Shown: positions 4,979 to 58,603 of the stretch, piece by piece
How positions within the stretch are numbered: position 1 is the stretch's first letter
Layout of the letters: each line of letters begins with the position of its first letter
Sequence record: OZ035799.1
Reading direction: 5' to 3' (one strand)
Length of the DNA: 64,000 nt
From: Justusliebigvirus alia
Notes under the pieces: model-generated
The model's database searches: none
What the model was told of the DNA's origin: nothing
What the model saw: the letters and a program-made list of their open reading frames with translations, nothing else
Made by a program: the position numbers and the translations under genes

Positions 4979-5455
4979 TCAACCTCTCTTAATTTGTTTA
5001 ACAAGCATAGGAACAAAATCTCGTTTTAAAATTTGTTCAATAATATGATCAGGTAGCTGTTGGAAATTATAATTAAAAGCTACTGTCTCACCTTTAGGTG
5101 TTTCTACCCGCACATATAACATGTTACGAAGTTTATCCACTTGTGCTGTATATTCTAAACCATGTAATTGATGCATTGCAAACATCAAATCATCAGTTTC
5201 AGTTTGGAATCTATCATTTGCTTGCATTAAGGACAAGGTAAAAGGTAGATTTTCCCTAAGAGCCACCTTCTTAGGAACTAGTGAAGGAAAATACTCACCA
5301 ATAACTTCCTGTGTAAGCTGGATACACTCTTTTTCAATTTGGTTTTGTTCCTTAAGTTCACAAACACTTTTTTGTAAAGTGTTAACCTCTTTTTGCAAAG
5401 CTGCTAGTTGAGCACTTAACTTTCTTTTTTGATTACGACCAAAACGTTTAGACAT
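4979..5455 (-). CDS. hypothetical protein
   Basis: 158 aa ORF, basic N-terminus with predicted coiled-coil character; no recognisable motif. Confidence 0.5.
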   Translation of the reverse strand: MSKRFGRNQKRKLSAQLAALQKEVNTLQKSVCELKEQNQIEKECIQLTQEVIGEYFPSLVPKKVALRENLPFTLSLMQANDRFQTETDDLMFAMHQLHGLEYTAQVDKLRNMLYVRVETPKGETVAFNYNFQQLPDHIIEQILKRDFVPMLVKQIKRG

Positions 5456-5463
5456 ATTTCCCC

Positions 5464-5979
5464 CTAGTAAAACCCTTTAACAATCTGTATTAACTCGGCA
5501 CAACGGTTGACCAACTTTTCCTCATACAATACACGTTGTGGCATATGTTGTATAATATACTCCATTTGCTCATGCCATGTCCACTTTTCTTTTTTGTCTG
5601 GGATAACATCACTAGCACGAGAATTATCTTTTAATGTTTGTATAATCCAATTGCTTGGAAAGTGCTCTCCACCTTTCTTAAATGGTTTATAGTGGCCTAG
5701 AGTGAATTGAGAATCCCCTGTTAGAGCACCCAATTTATTTAGATGGATAATCAAACTACGAAACACGTAGTATTCATAGATGTTATCCACCGTATAGCAA
5801 GCATAATATTTCAAGATGCCCTTATCTCGCGGATACTTACCAACATCCAGATTGCACCAGTTGACATTTTCTGGATCATAGTGGTGTTCCTTAAGCCATA
5901 TTTCTCTTTCATCAAAGTCTGGATATATTACCGCTCTGCTTACAGAGTCAACAAGTGGAGATTGAGCATCAAAAAACAT
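5464..5979 (-). CDS. hypothetical protein
   Basis: 171 aa ORF in operon context; no recognisable motif. Confidence 0.5.
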   Translation of the reverse strand: MFFDAQSPLVDSVSRAVIYPDFDEREIWLKEHHYDPENVNWCNLDVGKYPRDKGILKYYACYTVDNIYEYYVFRSLIIHLNKLGALTGDSQFTLGHYKPFKKGGEHFPSNWIIQTLKDNSRASDVIPDKKEKWTWHEQMEYIIQHMPQRVLYEEKLVNRCAELIQIVKGFY

Positions 5980-6000
5980 TATATTTTCCTTATTGGTTTG

Positions 6001-6366
6001 TTAAACGTTTTCTAAATCTTTTAAGGCATTACCCAACGTTAAAACAATAACATCGTTTGCTGCCTCTTCCCCATTAATATTGGTGAAATTTGGTGTGACA
6101 AAAGTAACCATATAAAACTCGTCCACCTGGAAGACAGCAATAACACCGTCCATCTTAACATCTTGACGAAATGAAAAACCAAGCATCTTCTCTTGCAAAG
6201 GCATATCCCCTTCCTTCATTACTGCCAGGGAGTTTTCAGGAATGTTATATTTATCTGCTCCGATGTAGATGTACGTAATGTTATCTTTATCGTGATGATA
6301 CAGGGTTGCTTTTTCCATATCTAAACCTGACAGATCAAATACGTTAATTTCTTGTGTAGTCTTCAT
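6001..6366 (-). CDS. hypothetical protein
   Basis: Start moved to ATG 6366 (MKTTQEINVF) preceded by GGAGAAT SD; longer track ORF would overlap the upstream gene by about 100 nt. Confidence 0.45.
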   Translation of the reverse strand: MKTTQEINVFDLSGLDMEKATLYHHDKDNITYIYIGADKYNIPENSLAVMKEGDMPLQEKMLGFSFRQDVKMDGVIAVFQVDEFYMVTFVTPNFTNINGEEAANDVIVLTLGNALKDLENV

Positions 6367-6730
6367 AAATATTCTCCCAAATCCAATAATCATCTGTGTA
6401 AGTAGGATGCCTTTTATCCCACTCTGTTCTAGCCCAAGCAACCGCTGCTACCAACACATCACCATGACAAGGTTGAGGTGCGCAGAAGCAAACTAAGTCT
6501 TTCCCTTCTAATTCTAACAAATCCTCAAGAGTGATTTTACCACAACGAATTTGTTCCCACAACCACTCTTTATATCTTTGTATAGTTGATCCTCGTGGTT
6601 CATCATCCTTTAACTTAAAAGGATTTGCAAACTTTGAGGCTTTTAACCCCATATGAGGCATAGCTCTGCCAATGTACACTGCACCTTCAGGTATTACTTT
6701 ACCTAAGTGGTAAAAATTTAATACTTTCAT
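6344..6730 (-). CDS. DUF4326-like protein
   Basis: YIGRAMP...GLKASKFANPF ... GKDLVCFCAPQPCHGDVL pattern typical of the DUF4326 family common in phages; start at MKVLNFY. Confidence 0.55.
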   Translation of the reverse strand: MKVLNFYHLGKVIPEGAVYIGRAMPHMGLKASKFANPFKLKDDEPRGSTIQRYKEWLWEQIRCGKITLEDLLELEGKDLVCFCAPQPCHGDVLVAAVAWARTEWDKRHPTYTDDYWIWENIYEDYTRN

Positions 6731-6731
6731 A

Positions 6732-7082
6732 TTAACCCAAACACATCTGTGCAATCAAGCCCTGTATAAATTTATTAGCTTCTTTACTGTCGTAGTCAGT
6801 CTCTTCTGGATATCCATCTTCATCGTACACAACTGTACCTTCAATATACCCTGCCTCAATTAAGGCGCGGATCATATCAAATTGCCAGCATGAGTTACCA
6901 AATGGACGTTTACCATTAAAACACTCTTCTTCTCTCCATAACGTAGAGAGTAGTTGTCGGAAATATTCCCGTACAGTGACAGTACCAAGATCTGAATCCT
7001 CAAACATAACATCCAGGGCATCAGGATTGCTTTTCTCTACATAAGGGATATATTTAACACCATTAATAGTTACATCAAGCAT
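6732..7082 (-). CDS. hypothetical protein
   Basis: 116 aa acidic ORF; no recognisable motif. Confidence 0.5.
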   Translation of the reverse strand: MLDVTINGVKYIPYVEKSNPDALDVMFEDSDLGTVTVREYFRQLLSTLWREEECFNGKRPFGNSCWQFDMIRALIEAGYIEGTVVYDEDGYPEETDYDSKEANKFIQGLIAQMCLG

Positions 7083-7445
7083 TTATTTCTCCTTATCATC
7101 ATATTCTAAGAACATATCTGCACGATATGCTTTACGCTCTTCAAACTTAGCAGGATCTACAACAATAAGCAATACAAGGTTAACATCTAAATACTTCTTA
7201 ACAAATAGAAATAAATCTTTTCCACAGTTAAAACCTACACCAGTATAGGCATCCCCATATTGATCTACTGATTTAATCTTCTTACTAACCGTACATTCTA
7301 TGCTATTCTTTTCTTCTTGGTATAAGGCTTTCCCACCCCAATATGTAAAGAATTTAGTACCGTCAGCACCAAGTTTAAAACCTTCTGTTGCATGCCCAGC
7401 AAATGAAAGTAAACATAACCAAGTGATCATCAGGTACTTTAGCAT
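7083..7445 (-). CDS. putative secreted protein
   Basis: Start at MLKYLMITWLCLLSFAGHA gives an N-terminal signal-peptide-like hydrophobic segment ending AGHA. Confidence 0.5.
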   Translation of the reverse strand: MLKYLMITWLCLLSFAGHATEGFKLGADGTKFFTYWGGKALYQEEKNSIECTVSKKIKSVDQYGDAYTGVGFNCGKDLFLFVKKYLDVNLVLLIVVDPAKFEERKAYRADMFLEYDDKEK

Positions 7446-7446
7446 T

Positions 7447-7929
7447 TTAACCACCCAATTGCAAATGTTTAGAAAGAACAATATCCCACTGATCACCACA
7501 ACCGTTATCTATGCGGAACATAATGTACGTATCATCTTCTTCTACGACATATAACACCTCATAGGAATTACAACAGCCTTCCCAATTTTTAACAGCCTCT
7601 GGTGTATCATGTGTAAAAATTTCATTACCATCATATGACCAAAACAAAGGGGTGAGGTTTTCGAACGTCAGTGAAGTAGGGTTTACTTCATCTTTAACTG
7701 CTTCCTCGTATTCTTTATGCGTTTGTACTGCTTTAGTTAGTGTACTCATGTCTATCTCCTTTTCTCCTTCTTGACTATGGAGGATAGCGAACTCTCTAAA
7801 CTCCACTTCACGCCATGTTTTCAGGTAGTGCTTTATAATTTTATCAACATCTACCTGTTCAACATTACTTTTCAAGCAATAGTAATCATGGTCTTCGCCC
7901 ATTCTACCCCATATGCTGTACATTGTCAT
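7447..7929 (-). CDS. hypothetical protein
   Basis: 160 aa ORF; no recognisable motif. Confidence 0.5.
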   Translation of the reverse strand: MTMYSIWGRMGEDHDYYCLKSNVEQVDVDKIIKHYLKTWREVEFREFAILHSQEGEKEIDMSTLTKAVQTHKEYEEAVKDEVNPTSLTFENLTPLFWSYDGNEIFTHDTPEAVKNWEGCCNSYEVLYVVEEDDTYIMFRIDNGCGDQWDIVLSKHLQLGG

Positions 7930-8197
7930 CTGATTGATCCTTTACATTGCTCTTGGTATACACAGGAATAACATCGTCGTGATCTTTATTACTTTCATCT
8001 GTTAAAGCCCAAAACAATTTACCTGCTGGATGTTTAAAGATGTAAGCAATAGGTTCCTTTTCCTGGGCTTCTTTGCTACGGATACCATCCCGCCAGGCAA
8101 GCCAAGTGTAGATCATCATTTCTTGACGCTCTTCTTCGTTAGGCCACATATGTGGTGGGAAGTTTTTATCAAACCATTGCTTAAATTCTTCAGTCAT
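7904..8197 (-). CDS. hypothetical protein
   Basis: 97 aa ORF with AAGGAG SD upstream of ATG 8197. Confidence 0.5.
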   Translation of the reverse strand: MTEEFKQWFDKNFPPHMWPNEEERQEMMIYTWLAWRDGIRSKEAQEKEPIAYIFKHPAGKLFWALTDESNKDHDDVIPVYTKSNVKDQSDDNVQHMG

Positions 8198-8207
8198 AAT
8201 CTACTCC

Positions 8208-8372
8208 TTAGCGTACAAAGTTAACTTCTGCTTCTTTCAGTTTTGACACTTCTACATAACCACCATGATCATCTTTAATCCATTCTTTTCCTTTACGGAT
8301 GATAACAGGATATGTAGAGTGAGTAAGTTTAGGTACAGATCTTTTTGTTTTAGTGATAGAAATGTTTTGCAT
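8208..8372 (-). CDS. hypothetical small protein
   Basis: 54 aa ORF (MQNISITKTKRS...) not in track (under 60 aa); AAGGAG SD 8 nt upstream of ATG 8372. Confidence 0.35.
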   Translation of the reverse strand: MQNISITKTKRSVPKLTHSTYPVIIRKGKEWIKDDHGGYVEVSKLKEAEVNFVR

Positions 8373-8432
8373 AGTAGTCTCCTTAGTAAATTTTACATAG
8401 AGTCTAGATTATTTAGTAGATAGAGTCAATAA

Positions 8433-8699
8433 CTAATTACTGTTAGATCTGTATTCTGTCTTCCATTCACAATGGTAAACTTCAACAGGTTCTAACTTCC
8501 AATGTTCAGGAACTAGTTCAGGACAATATCTACAAAAGAGAAATAGATAGATAACTAAGACAGGTATTAAATAGTAAAATGGTATACGATCATAACCATA
8601 CTTACGAGATAACATGTAGACATATAGATAGGGTATAACAATTAATCCTATAACTATAAGTAAGAAGAGAAGTATAAACCTTAGTGTAGTAACATCCAT
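8433..8699 (-). CDS. putative membrane protein
   Basis: 88 aa; hydrophobic segments FILLFLLIVIGLIVIPYLYVYML and YYLIPVLVIYLFLF; GGAG SD. Confidence 0.5.
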   Translation of the reverse strand: MDVTTLRFILLFLLIVIGLIVIPYLYVYMLSRKYGYDRIPFYYLIPVLVIYLFLFCRYCPELVPEHWKLEPVEVYHCEWKTEYRSNSN

Positions 8700-8730
8700 A
8701 GTATTCTCCTATACAGTAATATACTCTGTT

Positions 8731-8760
8731 CCTGCCCCTCCATGAGTGACAGGAACAATA
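8731..8760. repeat. inverted repeat / stem-loop in intergenic region
   Basis: tgttcctg ... caggaaca arms separated by about 12 nt. Confidence 0.4.
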
Positions 8761-8778
8761 TCTATAGAGAATACTAAC

Positions 8779-8830
8779 TCGCTTCGCTCGTCACCTTTCA
8801 GGTTTAGGGTAGCATGTTTTTCTGAAAAAG
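8779..8830 (+). promoter_or_regulatory. conserved intergenic motif (copy 1): CTCGCTNCGCTCG ... TTAGGGTAGCATGTTTTTC-NN-GAAAAAG
   Basis: Near-identical to motif at 36622-36672; contains TTTTTC/GAAAAA inverted repeat. Confidence 0.4.
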
Positions 8831-8863
8831 TCAATACTCTCCACAAAACTTTACAAAATACTT

Positions 8864-9136
8864 TTACATAGGTACAACAGAGTCTGTTTTGAAGTCGTAC
8901 ATATGATTTACACCTGTGATTTTTGACATAGAGATTGCACGTTTAGCACCTGCAATTACCTGGTCTGTCTTCTTAATCTCTTCACGGAACTTACGTACAG
9001 TTAAAGAGAAGAAACGATGATCCATCCATTGACGATTCACACGATCACGCTTGAAGTGACGGAAATCTTCAATCTGTTTATTGCGCAATCGGCGCAGTAC
9101 ATGCAATAGTTGATAGTAAGGGTGTTTATTTTTCAT
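8864..9136 (-). CDS. hypothetical protein
   Basis: 90 aa basic ORF with GGAGAATAA SD. Confidence 0.5.
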   Translation of the reverse strand: MKNKHPYYQLLHVLRRLRNKQIEDFRHFKRDRVNRQWMDHRFFSLTVRKFREEIKKTDQVIAGAKRAISMSKITGVNHMYDFKTDSVVPM

Positions 9137-9139
9137 AAA

Positions 9140-9568
9140 TTATTCTCCAAATCGAAAGTCGTCAATATCATCAAACCATACACAATGGCGAGTCCTTTCT
9201 TTTTCTGTTGCAGATATTGTTTCAACAGCTTTAGGACTAAGCACAACAGGAATGTAACGAATAGGTCGTTCATAATAGTAGCCATACTTTTCTGTATTAG
9301 CTGCCTCAAAGACTTTACGGCGTTCTTCAAGATCTTCTATGGTGAATCCTACCATATAACCATCATGTTTGCTACCCCATCCTTCCTCACTTTCAACAAT
9401 TGGGATATAAAAGCCGTTACGCGTCCCTGACGCTGGTTTTTCTTGAGCCTGAAGGCAAGCCTCCCATCCTGCTTTAAAGACGTTATAGAGCGATTTACGC
9501 ACGTTATGAGTGCCGCTTTCGCTTGCTGGATAGAGTTCATTAAATTTATCTTGGATTTGTTGTGTCAT
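9140..9568 (-). CDS. hypothetical protein
   Basis: 142 aa ORF; no recognisable motif. Confidence 0.5.
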   Translation of the reverse strand: MTQQIQDKFNELYPASESGTHNVRKSLYNVFKAGWEACLQAQEKPASGTRNGFYIPIVESEEGWGSKHDGYMVGFTIEDLEERRKVFEAANTEKYGYYYERPIRYIPVVLSPKAVETISATEKERTRHCVWFDDIDDFRFGE

Positions 9569-9711
9569 ACTCGCCCCTTAGTGATTATTTGACCAGCTAA
9601 ACAAATAGCTTGTAGTACAATAAAGAAGTAGCCTAATTTTACACTACCCAATACCCAGAATGCAATGTTTGCAAACAAACAAAAAGCAATATTAAGTCTA
9701 AAGAATAACAT
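9565..9711 (-). CDS. hypothetical small hydrophobic protein
   Basis: 48 aa ORF (MLFFRLNIAFCLFANIAFWVLGSV...) filling gap; stop overlaps downstream ATG; not in track. Confidence 0.25.
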   Translation of the reverse strand: MLFFRLNIAFCLFANIAFWVLGSVKLGYFFIVLQAICLAGQIITKGRV

Positions 9712-9912
9712 TTAATCCCCTTCATATTTAGGTAAAGGCATATATGCCACAATAGGAGGGTAATCAAAGTGAAAATGATGGTTCACCACAATAATCTTAC
9801 CAGACATACTTTTATGCACTTCACAATACCCTTTTTCACCATCTTCCATTACCACCACATACTCACCTAGTGGGATATCGTATGGATCTTCTACTTTTAC
9901 CCATTCTGTCAT
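9712..9912 (-). CDS. hypothetical protein
   Basis: 66 aa ORF; 4-nt overlap with upstream gene. Confidence 0.45.
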   Translation of the reverse strand: MTEWVKVEDPYDIPLGEYVVVMEDGEKGYCEVHKSMSGKIIVVNHHFHFDYPPIVAYMPLPKYEGD

Positions 9913-10178
9913 TTTGGAAACACCTCTTGTCCATCTTCATGCATTTGTAGTAAAGTTTCACAGATTTCATACACATCTTGATATGTTACAACTGAGAGAT
10001 CAGATTCTTGATCTTCGACAAGCATAGCACAAAGAGCTTTAATGTCAATACCTTTACAATGTTCCGTAGCTATACGGTACATTTCACCATCCTCCCAAAC
10101 AATTGGTTGCGGAAGCAAAACGTCTGTACCATCTTCACAAGTTACAATGTAGTCTGCAATATTATCACGAATTTTCAT
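9909..10178 (-). CDS. hypothetical protein
   Basis: 89 aa acidic ORF; overlapping start/stop with neighbours. Confidence 0.5.
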   Translation of the reverse strand: MKIRDNIADYIVTCEDGTDVLLPQPIVWEDGEMYRIATEHCKGIDIKALCAMLVEDQESDLSVVTYQDVYEICETLLQMHEDGQEVFPK

Positions 10179-15207: not shown

Positions 15208-15759
15208 ATGCGGATTACTGATAAGTATGTGTTCTTCTTTTCAGCAAAAGATGAATTTAGCAACTGGTATCTATCATCTTTTATTGAACCTTTAGCACCC
15301 AAGTATAATAATTCTATTACAAGTTCTGTTGAATTTACTTGTGTGGAACAATATATGATGTGGAGAAAAGCATGTTTGTTTTATGATTACAGTATTGCAT
15401 CTTCTATTTTAACCGGAGATCTAAGATATACAGGAGAAAAAGAACAAGCATATTATAAACGACTAGGCAGATTAGTTAAAGATTATGATGAAGATACCTG
15501 GGCTTCTTTACGGGAGAAGATTGTCAAGCGTGGTTTGTATCTTAAATACACACAAAATGAAGATCTCAAAAATAAACTTATCGCTTACGCAGATAAGGAG
15601 TTCGTAGAGGCAAGCCCTTATGATTCTATTTATGGTATCAAAATGGGGATGTGGGATCGTGACGTGGAAAATAAGGACTGTTGGAAAGGACAAAATCTTT
15701 TAGGAAAATGGCATACAGACCTTGCTGTTTATCTAAAAGCACAATCTGATATTTCCTGA
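15208..15759 (+). CDS. NADAR (YbiA-like) domain protein
   Basis: FFFSAKDEFSNWY ... VEQYMMWRKACLF ... SPYDSIYGIKMG pattern matches NADAR family. Confidence 0.6.
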   Translation: MRITDKYVFFFSAKDEFSNWYLSSFIEPLAPKYNNSITSSVEFTCVEQYMMWRKACLFYDYSIASSILTGDLRYTGEKEQAYYKRLGRLVKDYDEDTWASLREKIVKRGLYLKYTQNEDLKNKLIAYADKEFVEASPYDSIYGIKMGMWDRDVENKDCWKGQNLLGKWHTDLAVYLKAQSDIS

Positions 15760-15974
15760 TATTTTGAAAATTTTTATTTTTATAAAAAGGGGTGTGGGTT
15801 TCATGTACGGAAATTCACCCTCTGAATAATATATCCAGAGTAAGTATTATTTTGTACTCTGTTAATAAATTATTTAATTTGTTTGTTGGAATATGTTATC
15901 TGGTTTTTAAAAGGCATACTATCTCTTAACTACTACTTATAACAGAACAGTAAAATCATTTTTATAAAAAGGAC

Positions 15975-16182
15975 AAAATTATTTAAAGTTTTTACAGATT
16001 TTTGGGTACAAATTTAGAAAATGAAAAGTTCAAGTTTGGTCAAAATTATTTAAAGTTTTTGTACGTATTTCTATCCAGATTTTGAAAATGAAAACTTCAA
16101 TTTTTTAAAAATTCCCCAGTTTATTTAAAGTTTTTTTGCCTTTTTCCGTAGAAAAATCAAAAATGAAAAGTTCAATTTCGTG
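15975..16182. repeat. three imperfect tandem repeats of about 65-75 bp
   Basis: Each unit begins (a)aaattatttaaagttttt and ends gaaaatgaaaa(g/c)ttcaa. Confidence 0.6.
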
Positions 16183-16195
16183 TTTTTATGGGTGT

Positions 16196-16295
16196 GCGTA
16201 TGATAATCATTTTCATTTGTAAATGAGAATCATTATCATTTAAGTATGTAAGTGATAATCATTCTCACTAAGAGAATGAGAATCATTAGCAAATG
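16196..16295. promoter_or_regulatory. cluster of Fur-box-like palindromes
   Basis: gtaaatgagaatcattatc and gagaatgagaatcattagc each match 16/19 of the Fur consensus GATAATGATAATCATTATC; flanked by gataatcatt half-sites. Confidence 0.35.
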
Positions 16296-16573
16296 AGAAT
16301 TTTTCTCATTTAGAGAATAACGCGCAGGGGTGGTGTTTGTCTCGCGCTCCCGTGTCCCCTCGCCATACAATAAGAATAGCATAACCAACAACAAAAGCAA
16401 GCGATTATTTTTATCTTTACATTTCTTTACAAATTTATTTTAGACGAGCTACCGGCGATCAACCTTCCAACCAGTAGTGCCCTGGTATGTTAGCCCCGCC
16501 TTTACGCCGTGGGGGTGGCGTTTCCTCTTCTGTATGTAAAACAGTATAAGCCCGATCCCTGGGCTTGTCAAGA

Positions 16574-16840
16574 TTATTTTTTGTTTTCTTGCCAGGATAG
16601 GACACCTAACCAAAAATACATGTCGCCCCGCGCCCCTGGCGGGATCTTGCTTTCCCCGCCGCCACTGCAAGCCCATAGATAACCATTTACGAACGTATCA
16701 AAGTGATCTATCTCTTCCACCTTATGATTGCCCAGGTTGAGAACGGTTTCAACCTTTAAGCCCGTTGCGCTTGCTACCTGGTGCACCGTGCCGCCTTGCC
16801 AGCCCAATGAGTGCATGAGATGTAAAGGAGTATTTGTCAT
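16574..16840 (-). CDS. hypothetical protein in GC-rich island
   Basis: 88 aa ORF (MTNTPLHLMHSLGWQGGTVHQVA...) with AAAGGG SD; sits in locally GC-rich segment unlike the rest of the window. Confidence 0.3.
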   Translation of the reverse strand: MTNTPLHLMHSLGWQGGTVHQVASATGLKVETVLNLGNHKVEEIDHFDTFVNGYLWACSGGGESKIPPGARGDMYFWLGVLSWQENKK

Positions 16841-17104
16841 GGTATCGCCCTTTCTTTGATGTGCGCCCTGGTTGGCGCGGTAGAAAGATAATAGCCGTTT
16901 CCTTTATAGATAGCAAGCAAAAAAGAAATGAAAAAAGATTAAAAAAATGGTTGACGTTCCTCACCTGGTAGCGTAGTATTCATCTTGTCGAGGGGGCGAG
17001 GCACAACGACAATAAACAAAAGGAGGGCGCAATGTAGGACGGGCAAAGGTGAGGATCTCCACAATCCACCGTCACAATAACATTACTTATAAAAGGTTGA
17101 TAAC

Positions 17105-17200
17105 GATGATCAAGAAAGAAAACAGCTTGACGGTTGGAACGATTAACGCTATCATTCTTGCCGTTCCATTTTGGGTTGTAGTAGCGGTTATTATTTTTTA
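17105..17200 (+). CDS. hypothetical small hydrophobic peptide
   Basis: 31 aa (MIKKENSLTVGTINAIILAVPFWVVVAVIIF); TTGACG-17-TAGTAT promoter-like sequence about 150 nt upstream; speculative. Confidence 0.2.
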
Positions 17201-17209
17201 AAAATATTC

Positions 17210-17267
17210 TTGACAACGTTTTTTAATCTGATAAGATGTATCACATAGGGCGGCAATAGTGCCGCTC
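17210..17267 (+). promoter_or_regulatory. promoter + 5' GC hairpin cassette
   Basis: TTGACA (17210-17215), spacer, CACATA, hairpin GGGCGGCAATAGTGCCGCTC (17248-17267), then AGAGAGA SD and ATG 17290. Confidence 0.5.
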
Positions 17268-17289
17268 ATAACAGAAGAGAGAAATAATC

Positions 17290-27107: not shown

Positions 27108-27123
27108 ATAACATTCCATACAA

Positions 27124-27149
27124 GGGCGCAATAAGCGCCCTTTCTTTTT
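27124..27149 (+). terminator. rho-independent terminator
   Basis: GGGCGCAATAAGCGCCC hairpin + TTTCTTTTT; closes the plus-strand small-gene array. Confidence 0.65.
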
Positions 27150-27429
27150 ACCTCAATAAAGATGATAGCTTTTACCTATCAAAAACGTTCACCGAAAAAA
27201 GTGAATAGATCGCGGTATCGAGCTAATCAAGGAGCAGATGAACAACCATACCATGAAGATCATAAGGCGCTTACAACGTGTTTTAGACCGCTTATTTTTA
27301 ATTTCTTCATGCAACTATCTGGCAAAAACAGCCTTTTTCTTGTCTTTCCTCTTAAATGATAATCATTCTTATTTATAGCTGATTATTTATGCAATAAACT
27401 GCATAATGCAATAATGATAATCATTCTTA

Positions 27430-27780
27430 ACTTATGACCATCTAACCTATAAAATAATAAGTTATCTAACTAAATTAAAACTAATTATCTTACTTTTATT
27501 TATAACTTACTGTTACTATCTCATTGATAACCTTATATTAAACAACAATAACTAATATAAATCATTACTAAGCTAAATATAATCTATCTAACCTTTAAAA
27601 CTATAACTATAATCTATTGAATTATTGCACAAAGTAACTATTAAATCGTTAGTAACATTACTAAATAATTAATATCCTATTTATTTATGATCTAATCTTT
27701 ACCTTACTATCTATTACCTAAATAATCATTTTATACCGTAATCATTTCATACAATAATTATAACAAGAAATATAATTAGC
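27430..27780. other. G-poor, extremely AT-rich noncoding tract (strand-asymmetric composition)
   Basis: Top strand almost devoid of G over about 350 bp (cta/taa-rich); no ORFs. Confidence 0.4.
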
Positions 27781-27816
27781 AAGCGTATCATTAGCAGCCT
27801 ATGCCGGACACATAGG

Positions 27817-27965
27817 CGGCTAATAATAACGCAACTACACACCCCACATAATAACCATCACCGATAGTTATTATTTGTGCTTATGTAGCTTGCAACAACT
27901 GCAAGCGCAACAATATACATGGTATATTGTATTCCCTTACATTGTTGCGGTGCGTTATTATTAGC
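27817..27965. repeat. long-range inverted repeat (15-bp perfect arms) enclosing a palindrome
   Basis: GCTAATAATAACGCA (27818-27832) and TGCGTTATTATTAGC (27950-27964); internal GCTTGCA-acaac-TGCAAGC palindrome near 27890. Confidence 0.5.
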
Positions 27966-27984
27966 TAATGTTTAGAACATTGGC

Positions 27985-28062
27985 TATAATATAAGCTATC
28001 CAATAATATAAGCTATCCAATAATAATAAGCTATACAATAATAATAAGCTATACAATAATAA
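27985..28062. repeat. iteron-like direct repeats (4 copies, 17-18 bp)
   Basis: ataagctatccaataat x2 followed by ataagctatacaataata x2 in tandem. Confidence 0.6.
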
Positions 28063-28944
28063 ACATCGTGAATAATGATGCTGATGATCATAATGCGCCA
28101 CCTTCCAGGGCGGCGCTATGTGAACACAAAGAAATCTTTCTTGTCAAGAAAAATATTAACACTATTGCGCAAAATTATTTATATATGAATAGATGGTTTT
28201 TCATACTATTGCCCCTATAACATACCTCATTTGTTGCAATGTACCTTCCTATTTGTTGAGTATAGTTATAGCCTATTTGTTGAGCCTACTTTCTTAAAAG
28301 CGCAATAAAGTAGAAATATCTTGATTTTTAGTCGGTTTTATAGTACAGAAAGTATGCAAATGATAATCATTATCAGCTATCTTCCACGGGTAGCACTATT
28401 TCACGCCAGATCATTTCATTTGGCAAGGTGTATATAGATGTTTAGACTTGCCAAGCCATTGATTTACTTAGAATTTATCTGTTTTGTTGTGAGTAGTACC
28501 TTTCTTGCTCAGAAAATAATCAAAAGTCTTATAAGTCATTGAATGATAATGCAAATGATAATTATTCTCATTGATATTTGAGGGGGACGGTCGGCAGAAA
28601 TCGGGGGGCGCTGAAAATCGCGTTAAGCACCTCTCGCAAGCGAGCAGTATTTTGCGGCAAGTTATTGATATTATTGACTTTACGCTTATGAAAAGGGGGT
28701 GTGTCGAAATAAATCGGGTATACCGGAAAATTTTTGTGGCATAGATATTTATTTGTCTATATTATGTACAAAGGGGTGTGTTAAAAATATTAGGTATATA
28801 TAGAATAATTGATAGGGAAATCCTATGCTAATCCCTCCATTAATGATGTTCCTATGTTACTGTTCTTGTAATAGATGAAAAGACGCTGTATGATGTGTGG
28901 CATGAAACGTAAACTTACAACGTAAACTTATAAAGGAGTCTGAT

Positions 28945-57331: not shown

Positions 57332-57518
57332 ACTTGGCTACACCATTAACTATAATATGACCGCAAGACATAACTCCTAGCCAATGATCACCATTCTTTT
57401 TTAAACGTTTGCCGTAAACATCACAGAAACCATTCTGTAATTCGGAAGCCTCATAAGAGGCTCCCTTTTCGAAAACGTCTTTGAAGTCAGAAATTAATCC
57501 AACACAAAGTAGTTTCAT
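57300..57518 (-). CDS. hypothetical protein
   Basis: 72 aa ORF. Confidence 0.45.
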   Translation of the reverse strand: MKLLCVGLISDFKDVFEKGASYEASELQNGFCDVYGKRLKKNGDHWLGVMSCGHIIVNGVAKFEIIKGEKDD

Positions 57519-58603
57519 TAGAAGTCTAACTCCTCGTCATCACTTACATCTTTATTTGCTGAATTCAGTTTGTAAGCTGTAATTTGGATCTCCTGTGCTG
57601 CTGCTTGAATTTGATCTGGATTTAACCAAACATCCATCCAAGGCAGTGGACTTTTCTTCGGTGCACGGAATTTGTGTTTCATTTTCAGTCTGCGATAGAT
57701 AGGCGCAGCATTGAAGTAAACCCAAAGTTTGAACAACTCTGCGTTACCACCAACGATAATCCTTCCTTCACTAAACAGATAGTCACACCAATCTTCCTCT
57801 TGTCCAACTACCGTGTCAAGAATTTCTGTCAGAACGTCGATATTATCTTCGTATACTTTTCTCCAGACAGGATCTTTCAGCAGTGCATCAATAATAGCAT
57901 AATCCATTTTAACGTGCAATAGTTCATCCAACATAATTTTTTGAATGAGTTTAGCTGCACCTACAAACAGTTGCTGCTCTGCTAAGGCAAATGTTGCAGC
58001 AAAAGATGATATGAATTGAATGCCTTCCAGACCGATAAGTGCAATCATTCCTTTCAGAATCAGTAGACGAAGATTATCATCCTTCTCAATCAGACCTAGA
58101 GCATATTTATGTCCTGCCTCTGCCAGATCACTCATTATCTCTTCAACTATACCCATCCTCTGGAAGATTCTTTCATTCTCCATGATCTGATCGATAACTT
58201 CATTTGGATTAGGGATACACTGACGAATAATTTCAGAATATGTCAAAGCGTGTAAAACTTCCATCTCTGATTGCTTCATCATCATTGCACATGCTTCGTT
58301 GTTGCTTAAAAATGGTGCAAACAAAGTGATGATTGATTTAGCAAGTGAATCATTTTCCCATTGGAAAGATAGGTTTTTGATCATAACATCATAGTTGCTT
58401 TTAGAACAAGCTACGAAATCTTTTCGTGTCTGATCTAAGTTTACTTCGTTTTCATCCCAATCTTGCTGTTTTTGTAGTTTGTACAGACGATGCATTTCTG
58501 GGTATGTTACATTAATAGAATCAAAAATACCTAACTGTTCTCCCAAAAATACAGGGTAGAAACCTTCTTTGTAAGTGTCGTTGTATAAGTTAATTGCTGC
58601 CAT
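57518..58603 (-). CDS. nrdB: ribonucleoside-diphosphate reductase beta subunit (class Ia)
   Basis: 361 aa; ferritin-like di-iron fold residues (E...H pairs) and NrdB-typical C-terminal acidic tail DDEELDF. Confidence 0.9.
   Translation of the reverse strand: MAAINLYNDTYKEGFYPVFLGEQLGIFDSINVTYPEMHRLYKLQKQQDWDENEVNLDQTRKDFVACSKSNYDVMIKNLSFQWENDSLAKSIITLFAPFLSNNEACAMMMKQSEMEVLHALTYSEIIRQCIPNPNEVIDQIMENERIFQRMGIVEEIMSDLAEAGHKYALGLIEKDDNLRLLILKGMIALIGLEGIQFISSFAATFALAEQQLFVGAAKLIQKIMLDELLHVKMDYAIIDALLKDPVWRKVYEDNIDVLTEILDTVVGQEEDWCDYLFSEGRIIVGGNAELFKLWVYFNAAPIYRRLKMKHKFRAPKKSPLPWMDVWLNPDQIQAAAQEIQITAYKLNSANKDVSDDEELDF

Follow-up and report, generated by a model that had tools for sequence, protein, structure and literature searches.

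Why does the noncoding DNA of a virulent coliphage carry a series of palindromes that resemble the operators of Fur, the iron sensor of its host? The question is raised by a stretch of 64,000 nucleotides of Justusliebigvirus alia (OZ035799.1; hereafter the window), a phi92-like virulent myovirus of the Stephanstirmvirinae. Positions 64001-128000 of the 148-kb whole genome OZ035770.1 match the window at 100% identity, and close kin, at 97-98% identity, include phages phi92, outra and PHB05. Two large noncoding regions are concerned. Region 1 (15760-17289) begins after a rightward NADAR-domain gene ending at 15759 and holds one small leftward open reading frame, gp224; region 2 (27108-28944) contains the remaining copies of the palindrome, and both regions are followed by long runs of small rightward open reading frames. 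A sequence-only reading of this DNA had noticed Fur-box-like palindromes in both regions and suggested that they could place phage transcription under iron control, or titrate Fur and thereby derepress TonB-dependent outer-membrane transporters that many phages use as receptors. With moderate confidence, we favour the interpretation that the palindromes are authentic near-consensus operators for host Fur, which would act in cis within noncoding control regions as an iron-dependent barrier.

A Fur matrix was learned de novo, without a consensus prior, by palindromic expectation-maximisation seeded from the input sequences, namely 13 intergenic regions of canonical Fur-repressed genes of Escherichia coli K-12 (fepA-fes, fepD-entS, fepB-entC, fhuA, cirA, fiu, tonB, exbB, fecI, fecA, feoA, ryhB, and fhuF). 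The matrix converged on AATGATAATCATTATCATT with an information content of 15.7 bits, and in leave-one-out scoring the natural K-12 sites averaged 15.1 bits (range 3.4-20.4). Scanning the window revealed nine sites of at least 15 bits, with scores of 15-24 bits and all located in the two noncoding regions, compared with 0.195 ± 0.42 such sites in 200 dinucleotide-preserving shuffles of the window. Four of the phage boxes, at 21-24 bits, score above every natural training site. Across the whole 148-kb genome ten sites reach 15 bits, nine of them in the two regions. The sole site elsewhere, AATGCTAATGGTTTTGATT at OZ035770.1 position 33081 (locus L022; 17.3 bits), lies outside the window.

Chance matches in A+T-rich, repeat-rich noncoding DNA are the first alternative to be weighed, given that the regions are 68-76% A+T (76% in the stretch 15958-16312) and that the Fur consensus is itself A+T-rich. 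However, none of 1000 shuffles of either noncoding region attained the observed maximum score, and the boxes are conserved both relative to their flanks and in position across subfamilies, as described below. Chance and A+T-richness were rejected on these three grounds, and the probability that we leave to them is negligible. The claim that composition alone would not explain the sites, together with the matrix comparison against shuffled sequence that had been proposed as its check, was therefore borne out.

The form of the sites points in the same direction as their scores. The 7-1-7 form of the Fur palindrome, TGATAATnATTATCA, is matched with at most two mismatches at nine places in the window, and all nine lie in the two large noncoding regions, to which the sequence-only reading had indeed confined the sites. 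The phage boxes match the classical 19-bp motif GATAATGATAATCATTATC at 15-17 of 19 positions. Most boxes are paired with secondary sites at an exact 6-bp offset (16193/16199, 16245/16251, 16269/16275, 27407/27413, 28353/28359, and 28542/28548/28554), and clusters of overlapping sites at this offset are a signature reported for Fur (PMC2189734). All sequences quoted in the earlier reading are present and the further copies at 27410, 28358, and 28541 are where it put them, but its first two coordinates were 1-2 nt off: GTAAATGAGAATCATTATC occupies 16219-16237 rather than 16221-16239, and GAGAATGAGAATCATTAGC occupies 16272-16290 rather than 16271-16289, each with the 16 of 19 consensus matches that had been claimed. 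Boxes beyond its list were found at 16196-16214 and 16248-16266 (15/19 each), at 27352-27370, and as a palindrome at 16292-16310. Two weaker Fur-like matches also occur in region 1, TGATAACGATGATCA at 17098-17112 (two mismatches to the 7-1-7 form) and AACGATTAACGCTATCATT at 17138-17156 (12.3 bits), both close to rightward promoters that are predicted at 17127-17155 and 17210-17237, ahead of the first small rightward gene. The coordinates of the boxes and of the other features of region 1 are collected in Table 1.

Table 1. Predicted Fur boxes of both noncoding regions and neighbouring features of region 1 (window coordinates; scores from the 13-promoter Fur matrix).
Feature	Position	Strand	Description
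Fur box 1	16199-16217		TATGATAATCATTTTCATT, 21.8 bits; one mismatch to 7-1-7; 6-bp-offset secondary site from 16193
Fur box 2	16222-16240		AATGAGAATCATTATCATT, 24.0 bits; strongest site in the window
Fur box 3	16251-16269		AGTGATAATCATTCTCACT, 17.1 bits; one mismatch to 7-1-7; secondary site from 16245
Fur box 4	16275-16293		AATGAGAATCATTAGCAAA, 17.5 bits; secondary site from 16269; overlaps the 19-mer GAGAATGAGAATCATTAGC (16/19)
Fur box 5	16292-16310		Proximal palindrome AATGAGAATTTTTCTCATT, 16.6 bits
Fur box 6	27355-27373		AATGATAATCATTCTTATT, 21.1 bits; conserved in four Justusliebigvirus genomes
Fur box 7	27407-27431		AATGATAATCATTCTTAAC, weaker overlapping pair at 27407 (12.8 bits) and 27413 (13.0 bits); two mismatches to 7-1-7; unchanged across four genomes
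Fur box 8	28353-28377		TATGCAAATGATAATCATTATCAGC, two sites 6 bp apart, 16.6 (from 28353) and 13.4 bits; 19-mer match 17/19; perfect 7-1-7 at 28361-28375; unchanged across four genomes
Fur box 9	28548-28572		AATGCAAATGATAATTATTCTCATT, two sites 6 bp apart, 15.4 (from 28548) and 23.0 bits (from 28554); sole change among four genomes at the uninformative centre base
Three direct repeats of ~70 bp	15958-16178	+	Rich in A and T tracts; adjoin the array on its left
Conserved noncoding block, ~230 bp	16313-16540	-	Between P_L and box 5
Predicted sigma-70 promoter P_L	16571->16543	-	TTGACA-17-TATACT; 11/12 hexamer matches
gp224	16574-16840	-	88 amino acids; phrog_19316; no Pfam match

The phage boxes were then compared with the Fur operators of bacteria. 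A stringent tandem pattern written from the phage boxes alone, AATGAKAATNATTMTCATT-N4-34-AATGAKAATNATTMTCATT, occurs just 12 times in 596 Gb of bacterial and archaeal sequence, and the adjoining genes (n=10) comprise eight TonB-dependent receptors, one FecCD iron-siderophore permease, and one indoleamine dioxygenase. Judged by these neighbours, the tandem pattern marks putative iron-uptake promoters in bacteria. The 15-mer AATGAGAATCATTAT of box 2 also occurs immediately upstream of iucA on plasmids of the ColV type. There, a 43-nt aerobactin sequence located 20 nt upstream of iucA is 100% identical in 791 plasmids, and we take it to be the experimentally footprinted aerobactin Fur operator. 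Like the enterobacterial operators of iucA, ryhB, fecI, fhuA, and entC, the phage boxes show the 19-bp motif, readable as F-F-x-R hexamers and as the 7-1-7 palindrome, together with overlapping clusters at 6 bp, and their scores equal or exceed those of the best natural sites. Unlike these operators, the boxes of region 1 do not cover the -35 and -10 elements of an iron-metabolism gene, they belong to a virulent phage genome, and they form spaced noncoding arrays (starts 17-29 bp apart, five boxes in 115 bp), whereas strong tandem box pairs are very rare in bacteria, as the 12 loci indicate.

These palindromes might instead bind a phage-encoded protein or another host protein, as origin iterons or terminase and packaging sites do, and merely resemble Fur sites. 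Consistent with this, the phage boxes favour G at matrix position 6 in one half-site (0.64 G), where the host sites favour T (0.64). However, of all arm positions in the host sites this one, the T of GATAAT, carries the least information (T 0.64, A 0.19, G 0.16), and natural half-sites vary, with ATTCTCATT in ryhB, exbB, and feoA, ATTCTCGTT in fhuA, and TATGAGAAT in fecI. The G variant GAGAAT is present in the natural fecI site, and the sequence upstream of iucA contains GATAATGAGAATCATTATT and hence the G variant of the phage boxes as well. The two regions also have the look of origin or packaging hubs, with ~70-bp repeats, the region-specific octamer GGGGTGTG, and a promoter followed by an A+T-rich stretch, and arrays in other viral contigs often lie within ~2 kb of terminase genes. 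Against this stand the matching of a 15.7-bit host motif at nine sites, hexamer phasing included, the occurrence of the same pattern at bacterial iron-uptake genes, and the lack of a candidate binder common to phi92-like phages, T5, and the other phages, whose terminases are unrelated. We therefore regard binding by a protein other than Fur as decidedly unlikely.

Several specific binders were considered and rejected. A tblastn search of the 148-kb genome with E. coli Fur gave nothing better than E = 3.9, which rules out a phage-encoded Fur. A search of the alia genome with 19 T5 proteins, the DNA-binding A2 among them, gave no homologue (tblastn, no match at E < 0.01; the queries were 17 pre-early proteins including A1 and A2, plus T5.018 and T5.019, and cover the left terminal repeat and its flank), so that no binder common to T5 emerged from this set. 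The gp224 protein is confined to phi92-like contigs and absent from T5 and other array-bearing contigs, and was rejected as a shared binder; its N-terminus, WQGGTVHQVASATGLKVETV, resembles a helix-turn-helix, and its gene is conserved beside the element in relatives. CRP (TGTGA-N6-TCACA), ArgR, Zur, LexA, and IHF do not fit in spacing or core bases, judged by their consensus sequences. These results together argue for a shared host protein as the binder, and host Fur is the economical candidate because unrelated phage groups carry boxes identical to the strongest class of host operators. Identification of the palindromes as Fur boxes is thus upheld by matrix score, overlapping 6-bp phasing, the pattern's association with bacterial iron-uptake genes, and the selective constraint described below; binding itself, and any effect that it would have, we infer.

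Conservation was assessed at two evolutionary distances. In region 2, compared among four Justusliebigvirus genomes that differ at 16.9% of noncoding positions, the boxes vary at only three of 94 positions and the flanking noncoding DNA at 289 of 1708 (Fisher p = 8e-5). One of the three box changes affects the uninformative centre base and another the weakly informative position 15. The comparison indicates purifying selection on the boxes, which change at about one fifth of the rate of the surrounding noncoding DNA. At the greater distance, the position of box 5 in region 1 is conserved: wherever it is the best local site, box 5 (AAATGAGAAT-N-ATTCTCATTT) begins a fixed 40 nt upstream of an GGTGTTTGTCTCGCG anchor. 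The spacing holds in a dozen phages of the Stephanstirmvirinae and Vequintavirinae, including phAPEC8, phiWec179, two Klebsiella phages, PVP-SE1, and Cronobacter, Erwinia, and Serratia phages, and the hosts, from six genera, are E. coli, Klebsiella, Salmonella, Cronobacter, Erwinia, and Serratia. Phage W70 retains box 5 at a weaker 12.6 bits, and in alia, phi92, and the IMG/VR contig L073 the best tabulated site is box 4 at 57 nt, with the box 5 palindrome read from the upstream sequence. Members of the Vequintavirinae possess one box, whereas those of the Stephanstirmvirinae possess 4-6 sites of at least 13 bits within 400 bp. Relatives in IMG/VR were sought with the 15-mer GGTGWTTGTCTCGCG, which gave 109 matches, mostly due to chance; contigs L073, L213, L215, and L228 passed the relatedness filter.

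The array of region 1 is situated between the 3′ ends of convergent genes. From left to right, the region comprises the end of the NADAR gene, a hairpin whose tail is rich in T (read by eye), the ~70-bp repeats, the five boxes, the conserved block, the predicted promoter P_L, and gp224. The repeat cores are TTATTTAAAGTTTTT and GAAAATGAAAAGTTCAA; the repeats look like iterons or bent DNA, and analogous tandem repeats can be read at the corresponding place in PVP-SE1-, Erwinia-, and rV5-type relatives. The GenBank record of alia annotates repeat_region features at about 15975-16100 and at 16202-16242 of the window. P_L aims leftward at the array, with box 5 about 230 nt downstream. Its -35 and -10 hexamers are retained in all ten phages compared from the two subfamilies and its spacer varies, which is good evidence that P_L is a real promoter; the variable spacer is able to form a hairpin. 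In these ten phages the conserved block is retained as well, and box 5 stays at a fixed distance from block and promoter. The block between P_L and box 5 contains long invariant stretches across the Stephanstirmvirinae and Vequintavirinae and may be the body of an undescribed leftward noncoding or primer transcript. Rfam covariance models assigned the block to no family (two chance-level matches, E = 0.27 and 0.58), and RNAalifold reported four compensatory pairs, one hairpin with compensatory changes, and a covariation term of +0.38.

No strong sigma-70 promoter overlaps the region 1 array, the nearest good one being the conserved P_L. A classical Fur-repressed promoter over the array was considered and rejected: the best candidates reach only 9 of 12 hexamer matches, which arise trivially from the GATAAT and TATCAT words of the boxes themselves. 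In Seunavirus-type relatives, box 5 fills the spacer of a weak promoter-like site, TTGAAT-18-CAGAAT, recognised by eye.

A cis-acting role for Fur is favoured because one box, flanked by convergent transcription units, keeps a fixed place downstream of the conserved promoter and block and has expanded to an array in one subfamily. In an iron-replete cell, both groups of boxes, five at 16199-16310 and four at 27355-28572, would be covered by Fe2+-Fur dimers. Transcription from P_L would proceed leftward through the conserved noncoding block and reach box 5 after about 230 nt, where the Fur-coated array may form an iron-dependent protein barrier or operator in the path of the transcript. Such a barrier could decide whether the P_L transcript, or a replication, priming, or packaging event that depends on it, enters the A+T-rich repeat region, and the phage would thereby sense the iron status of its host. 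Replicated genomes, with nine or more boxes per copy, would absorb Fur as a side effect. A link to iron is plausible because the phage encodes a homologue of the di-iron ribonucleotide reductase small subunit NrdB (window 57518-58603, minus strand; 31% identity to T5 NrdB, E = 5e-49).

The layout of a strong promoter followed by an A+T-rich, repeat-containing stretch recalls the promoter-primed origins of other phages, such as the primary origin of T7 and oriF and oriG of T4. A replication start in region 1 of alia is hypothetical, however, and the T7 and T4 origins are not known to contain Fur boxes.

Several points weigh against a cis-acting Fur barrier. The matrix was built on just 13 promoter regions. 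P_L and its transcript are predictions, and RNAalifold lends only weak support to an RNA structure in the conserved block. The region 1 array lies off any strong promoter predicted from the sequence, so that classical promoter occlusion is not evident. The Vequintavirinae have a single box where the Stephanstirmvirinae have about nine, and the array may thus differ in purpose from the ancestral box. Finally, it is not obvious what a virulent phage would gain by blocking a conserved transcript precisely when its host is iron-replete.

The number of boxes also suggests a role in trans, in which boxes on the replicating genome act as a sponge that titrates Fur and derepresses iron uptake, RyhB, and nrdHIEF, supplying iron to phage enzymes such as the phage's own ribonucleotide reductase. 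The presence of a di-iron NrdB homologue agrees with this proposal, as do nine or more boxes per genome that score level with or above the best host operators, and the recurrence of arrays of 2-6 distinct boxes in many phages. As expected of a decoy, the sites lie in noncoding DNA on a high-copy replicon and are not tied to an obvious regulated gene. In the laboratory Fur titration assay (FURTA), one Fur box carried by a multicopy plasmid is enough to derepress fhuF::lacZ, and the phage arrays resemble such decoys in that a replicon of high copy number bears many strong sites. A cell contains roughly 5,000-10,000 molecules of Fur, and at least 100 genome copies would give a comparable number of sites. 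On the other hand, the single fixed box of the Vequintavirinae suits a role in cis and has little titration capacity, and one incoming genome would be unable to titrate Fur early in infection. Phage T5 destroys the host DNA and shuts off host gene expression early, in line with the annotation of its A1 gene; it has the same boxes yet would gain nothing from derepressed host genes. No natural phage element acting as a Fur decoy was found in the literature searched. We consider a sponge unlikely to be the main function of the boxes.

Of the consequences that the sequence-only reading had drawn, iron control of phage transcription and titration of Fur by the predicted boxes are both plausible from the sequence. 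A pay-off through derepressed TonB-dependent receptors found no support. The BASEL phenotyping points to enterobacterial common antigen as the primary receptor of phi92-like phages and the Vequintavirinae and, as the likely terminal receptor, to a glucose of the lipopolysaccharide core (BASEL, PMC8594841). Because these receptors are glycans, derepression of TonB-dependent receptors is an unlikely benefit for phi92-like phages.

The region 1 array has a counterpart in phage T5. Window positions 16222-16312 align to the annotated injection stop signal (iss) in the left terminal repeat of T5 (sensitive blastn, 75% identity over ~100 bp). In the first 50 kb of the T5 genome (NC_005859), six sites reach at least 15 bits, all of them at 9552-9715 and up to 24.3 bits, and the 19-mer at 9656, AATGAGAATCATTATCATT, is identical to box 2 at 16222. 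Fur-like boxes compose the 67-nt direct repeats of T5 at 9534-9600 and 9638-9704 as well as the shorter repeats around them, and they correspond to the DRE/DRC repeats and palindromes of Davison, which are conserved in 25 T5-like phages and were left unexplained (Davison, bioRxiv 10.1101/866236). The calculated shear point of T5 first-step transfer, 9618, falls among these repeats, and Fur is not mentioned in that analysis (Davison, bioRxiv 10.1101/866236). The major nick site of T5 at 9748/9749 and a G+C-rich hairpin lie just past the box-containing repeats.

The resemblance to T5 raises the possibility of a DNA-entry or architectural element, as proposed for the T5 iss, in which the boxes, with or without Fur, pause, anchor, or protect the DNA. 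The T5 iss and the alia array have related sequence, an identical 19-mer, and a large repeat-rich noncoding region between convergent gene ends. The alignment itself, the composition of the 67-nt DRE repeats around the shear point, and the location of boxes in T7-like contigs between the last late and first early genes, that is, in the terminal or leading-end region, are all in accord with such an element. However, the T5 iss belongs to a terminal repeat at the first-step-transfer boundary. The paired DnaA boxes and the nick site beside it, like the A1/A2 system, were not found in the phi92-like genome. A1 and A2 homologues are absent by the tblastn search described above, and no match to the DnaA box TTWTNCACA occurs within 15760-17289 or 27108-28944. 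Genomes of the rV5 type are reported to be circularly permuted and would have no fixed leading end (PMC3606486). Moreover, a cytoplasmic protein on DNA that has already entered cannot alone halt further entry. Taken together, an entry or architectural function seems very unlikely for the alia boxes.

The exact 19-mer of box 2 was identified in at least 120 IMG/VR contigs, most of which are unrelated to T5 or alia and range from 29 to 57% in G+C. A survey seeded by one exact word shows breadth and not prevalence, and the following figures refer to the 120 contigs listed. Two or more separate boxes are present in 91 of them, in arrays of 2-6 separate boxes with up to nine overlapping sites of at least 15 bits within 300 bp. 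Only 36 of 356 sites fall inside open frames of at least 100 codons, though such frames make up 73% of the DNA, and the best site lies in a gap free of open reading frames with a median length of 813 bp. At 79 of 104 loci, compared with 28 expected, four consecutive G or four consecutive C occur within 60 bp of the array. Terminase subunit genes are frequent neighbours of the arrays, often within ~2 kb; the phage groups with arrays have unrelated terminases. Examples are the arrays at 10734-10898 of L105, 10045-10208 of L091, 5708-5945 of L026, and 4477-4988 of L100 (reverse complement), from the loci catalogued as L026-L145. When the exact 19-mer was masked and the motif was relearned from the secondary boxes, AATGA(G/T)AAT(C/G)ATT(A/C)TCATT was obtained. 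The tandem pattern occurs at 27 viral loci (2.9 million contigs) versus 12 bacterial loci (32.2 million contigs), figures that do not permit an exact comparison of densities.

Other features of the two regions and of the genome were also recorded. The 148-kb assembly contains no long duplication of either region, and only short motifs are common to both. One of these, the octamer GGGGTGTG, is present in four copies in the 148-kb genome, all inside region 1 or 2 (15789, 28696, and 28773 on the plus strand and 27838 on the minus strand), usually as AAAGGGGTGTG, and it is a second motif specific to both noncoding regions. Region 2 contains a perfect 15-nt inverted repeat (arms 27819-27833 and 27951-27965, separated by 117 nt), followed by four tandem 18-bp repeats, ATAAGCTATMCAATAATA, at 27991-28062. 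GC skew tracks the direction of transcription only, and no tRNA genes were found in the 64-kb window. Four GenBank records that are 97% identical over the query (MG065639, MG065645, MG065656, and MG065689) are named 'Campylobacter phage' with Campylobacter jejuni as host; this host label is probably wrong, or the records reflect contamination.

Binding sites for host regulators are known from other phages, such as those of stx1, the DtxR box of corynephage tox, and the pho and NtcA boxes of cyanophages. The alia boxes resemble them in that the site of a nutrient-sensing host regulator is placed on phage DNA. In the known cases, most of them from temperate phages, one operator precedes a specific cargo or auxiliary gene, whereas alia has multi-box arrays in the noncoding control regions of a virulent phage with no attached iron-related gene. 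For Fur itself, a box upstream of sitABCD on lambdoid coliphages has already been described (PMC6969025). In the literature searched, we found no description of Fur boxes in phi92-, rV5-, or T5-type phages, nothing relevant on the effect of fur mutations on phage plating, and no transcriptome of a phi92-like phage under iron limitation.

We tentatively propose, at somewhat lower confidence than the cis-acting reading of the alia boxes, that Fur-box arrays may constitute a widespread and previously unrecognised cis-element of unrelated virulent phages, the T5 iss included, which would couple entry, transcription, or replication to Fur or would use Fur in an architectural role. The class would comprise phi92/rV5-like, T5-like, aquatic T7-like, and other phages, in which the arrays mark noncoding control or terminal regions. 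In the gut and in the ocean, iron is one of the main constraints on how bacteria grow, and the sensor of iron that is universal among them is Fur. Should virulent phages indeed read Fur through such arrays, iron availability would directly tune infection, which would matter for phage therapy where host tissue restricts iron and for modelling how marine phages and their hosts interact. Fur also becomes a concrete, testable host-factor candidate for the T5 injection stop signal, the repeats of which have lacked an explanation for decades, and the boxes provide a simple signature by which any phage genome can be screened.

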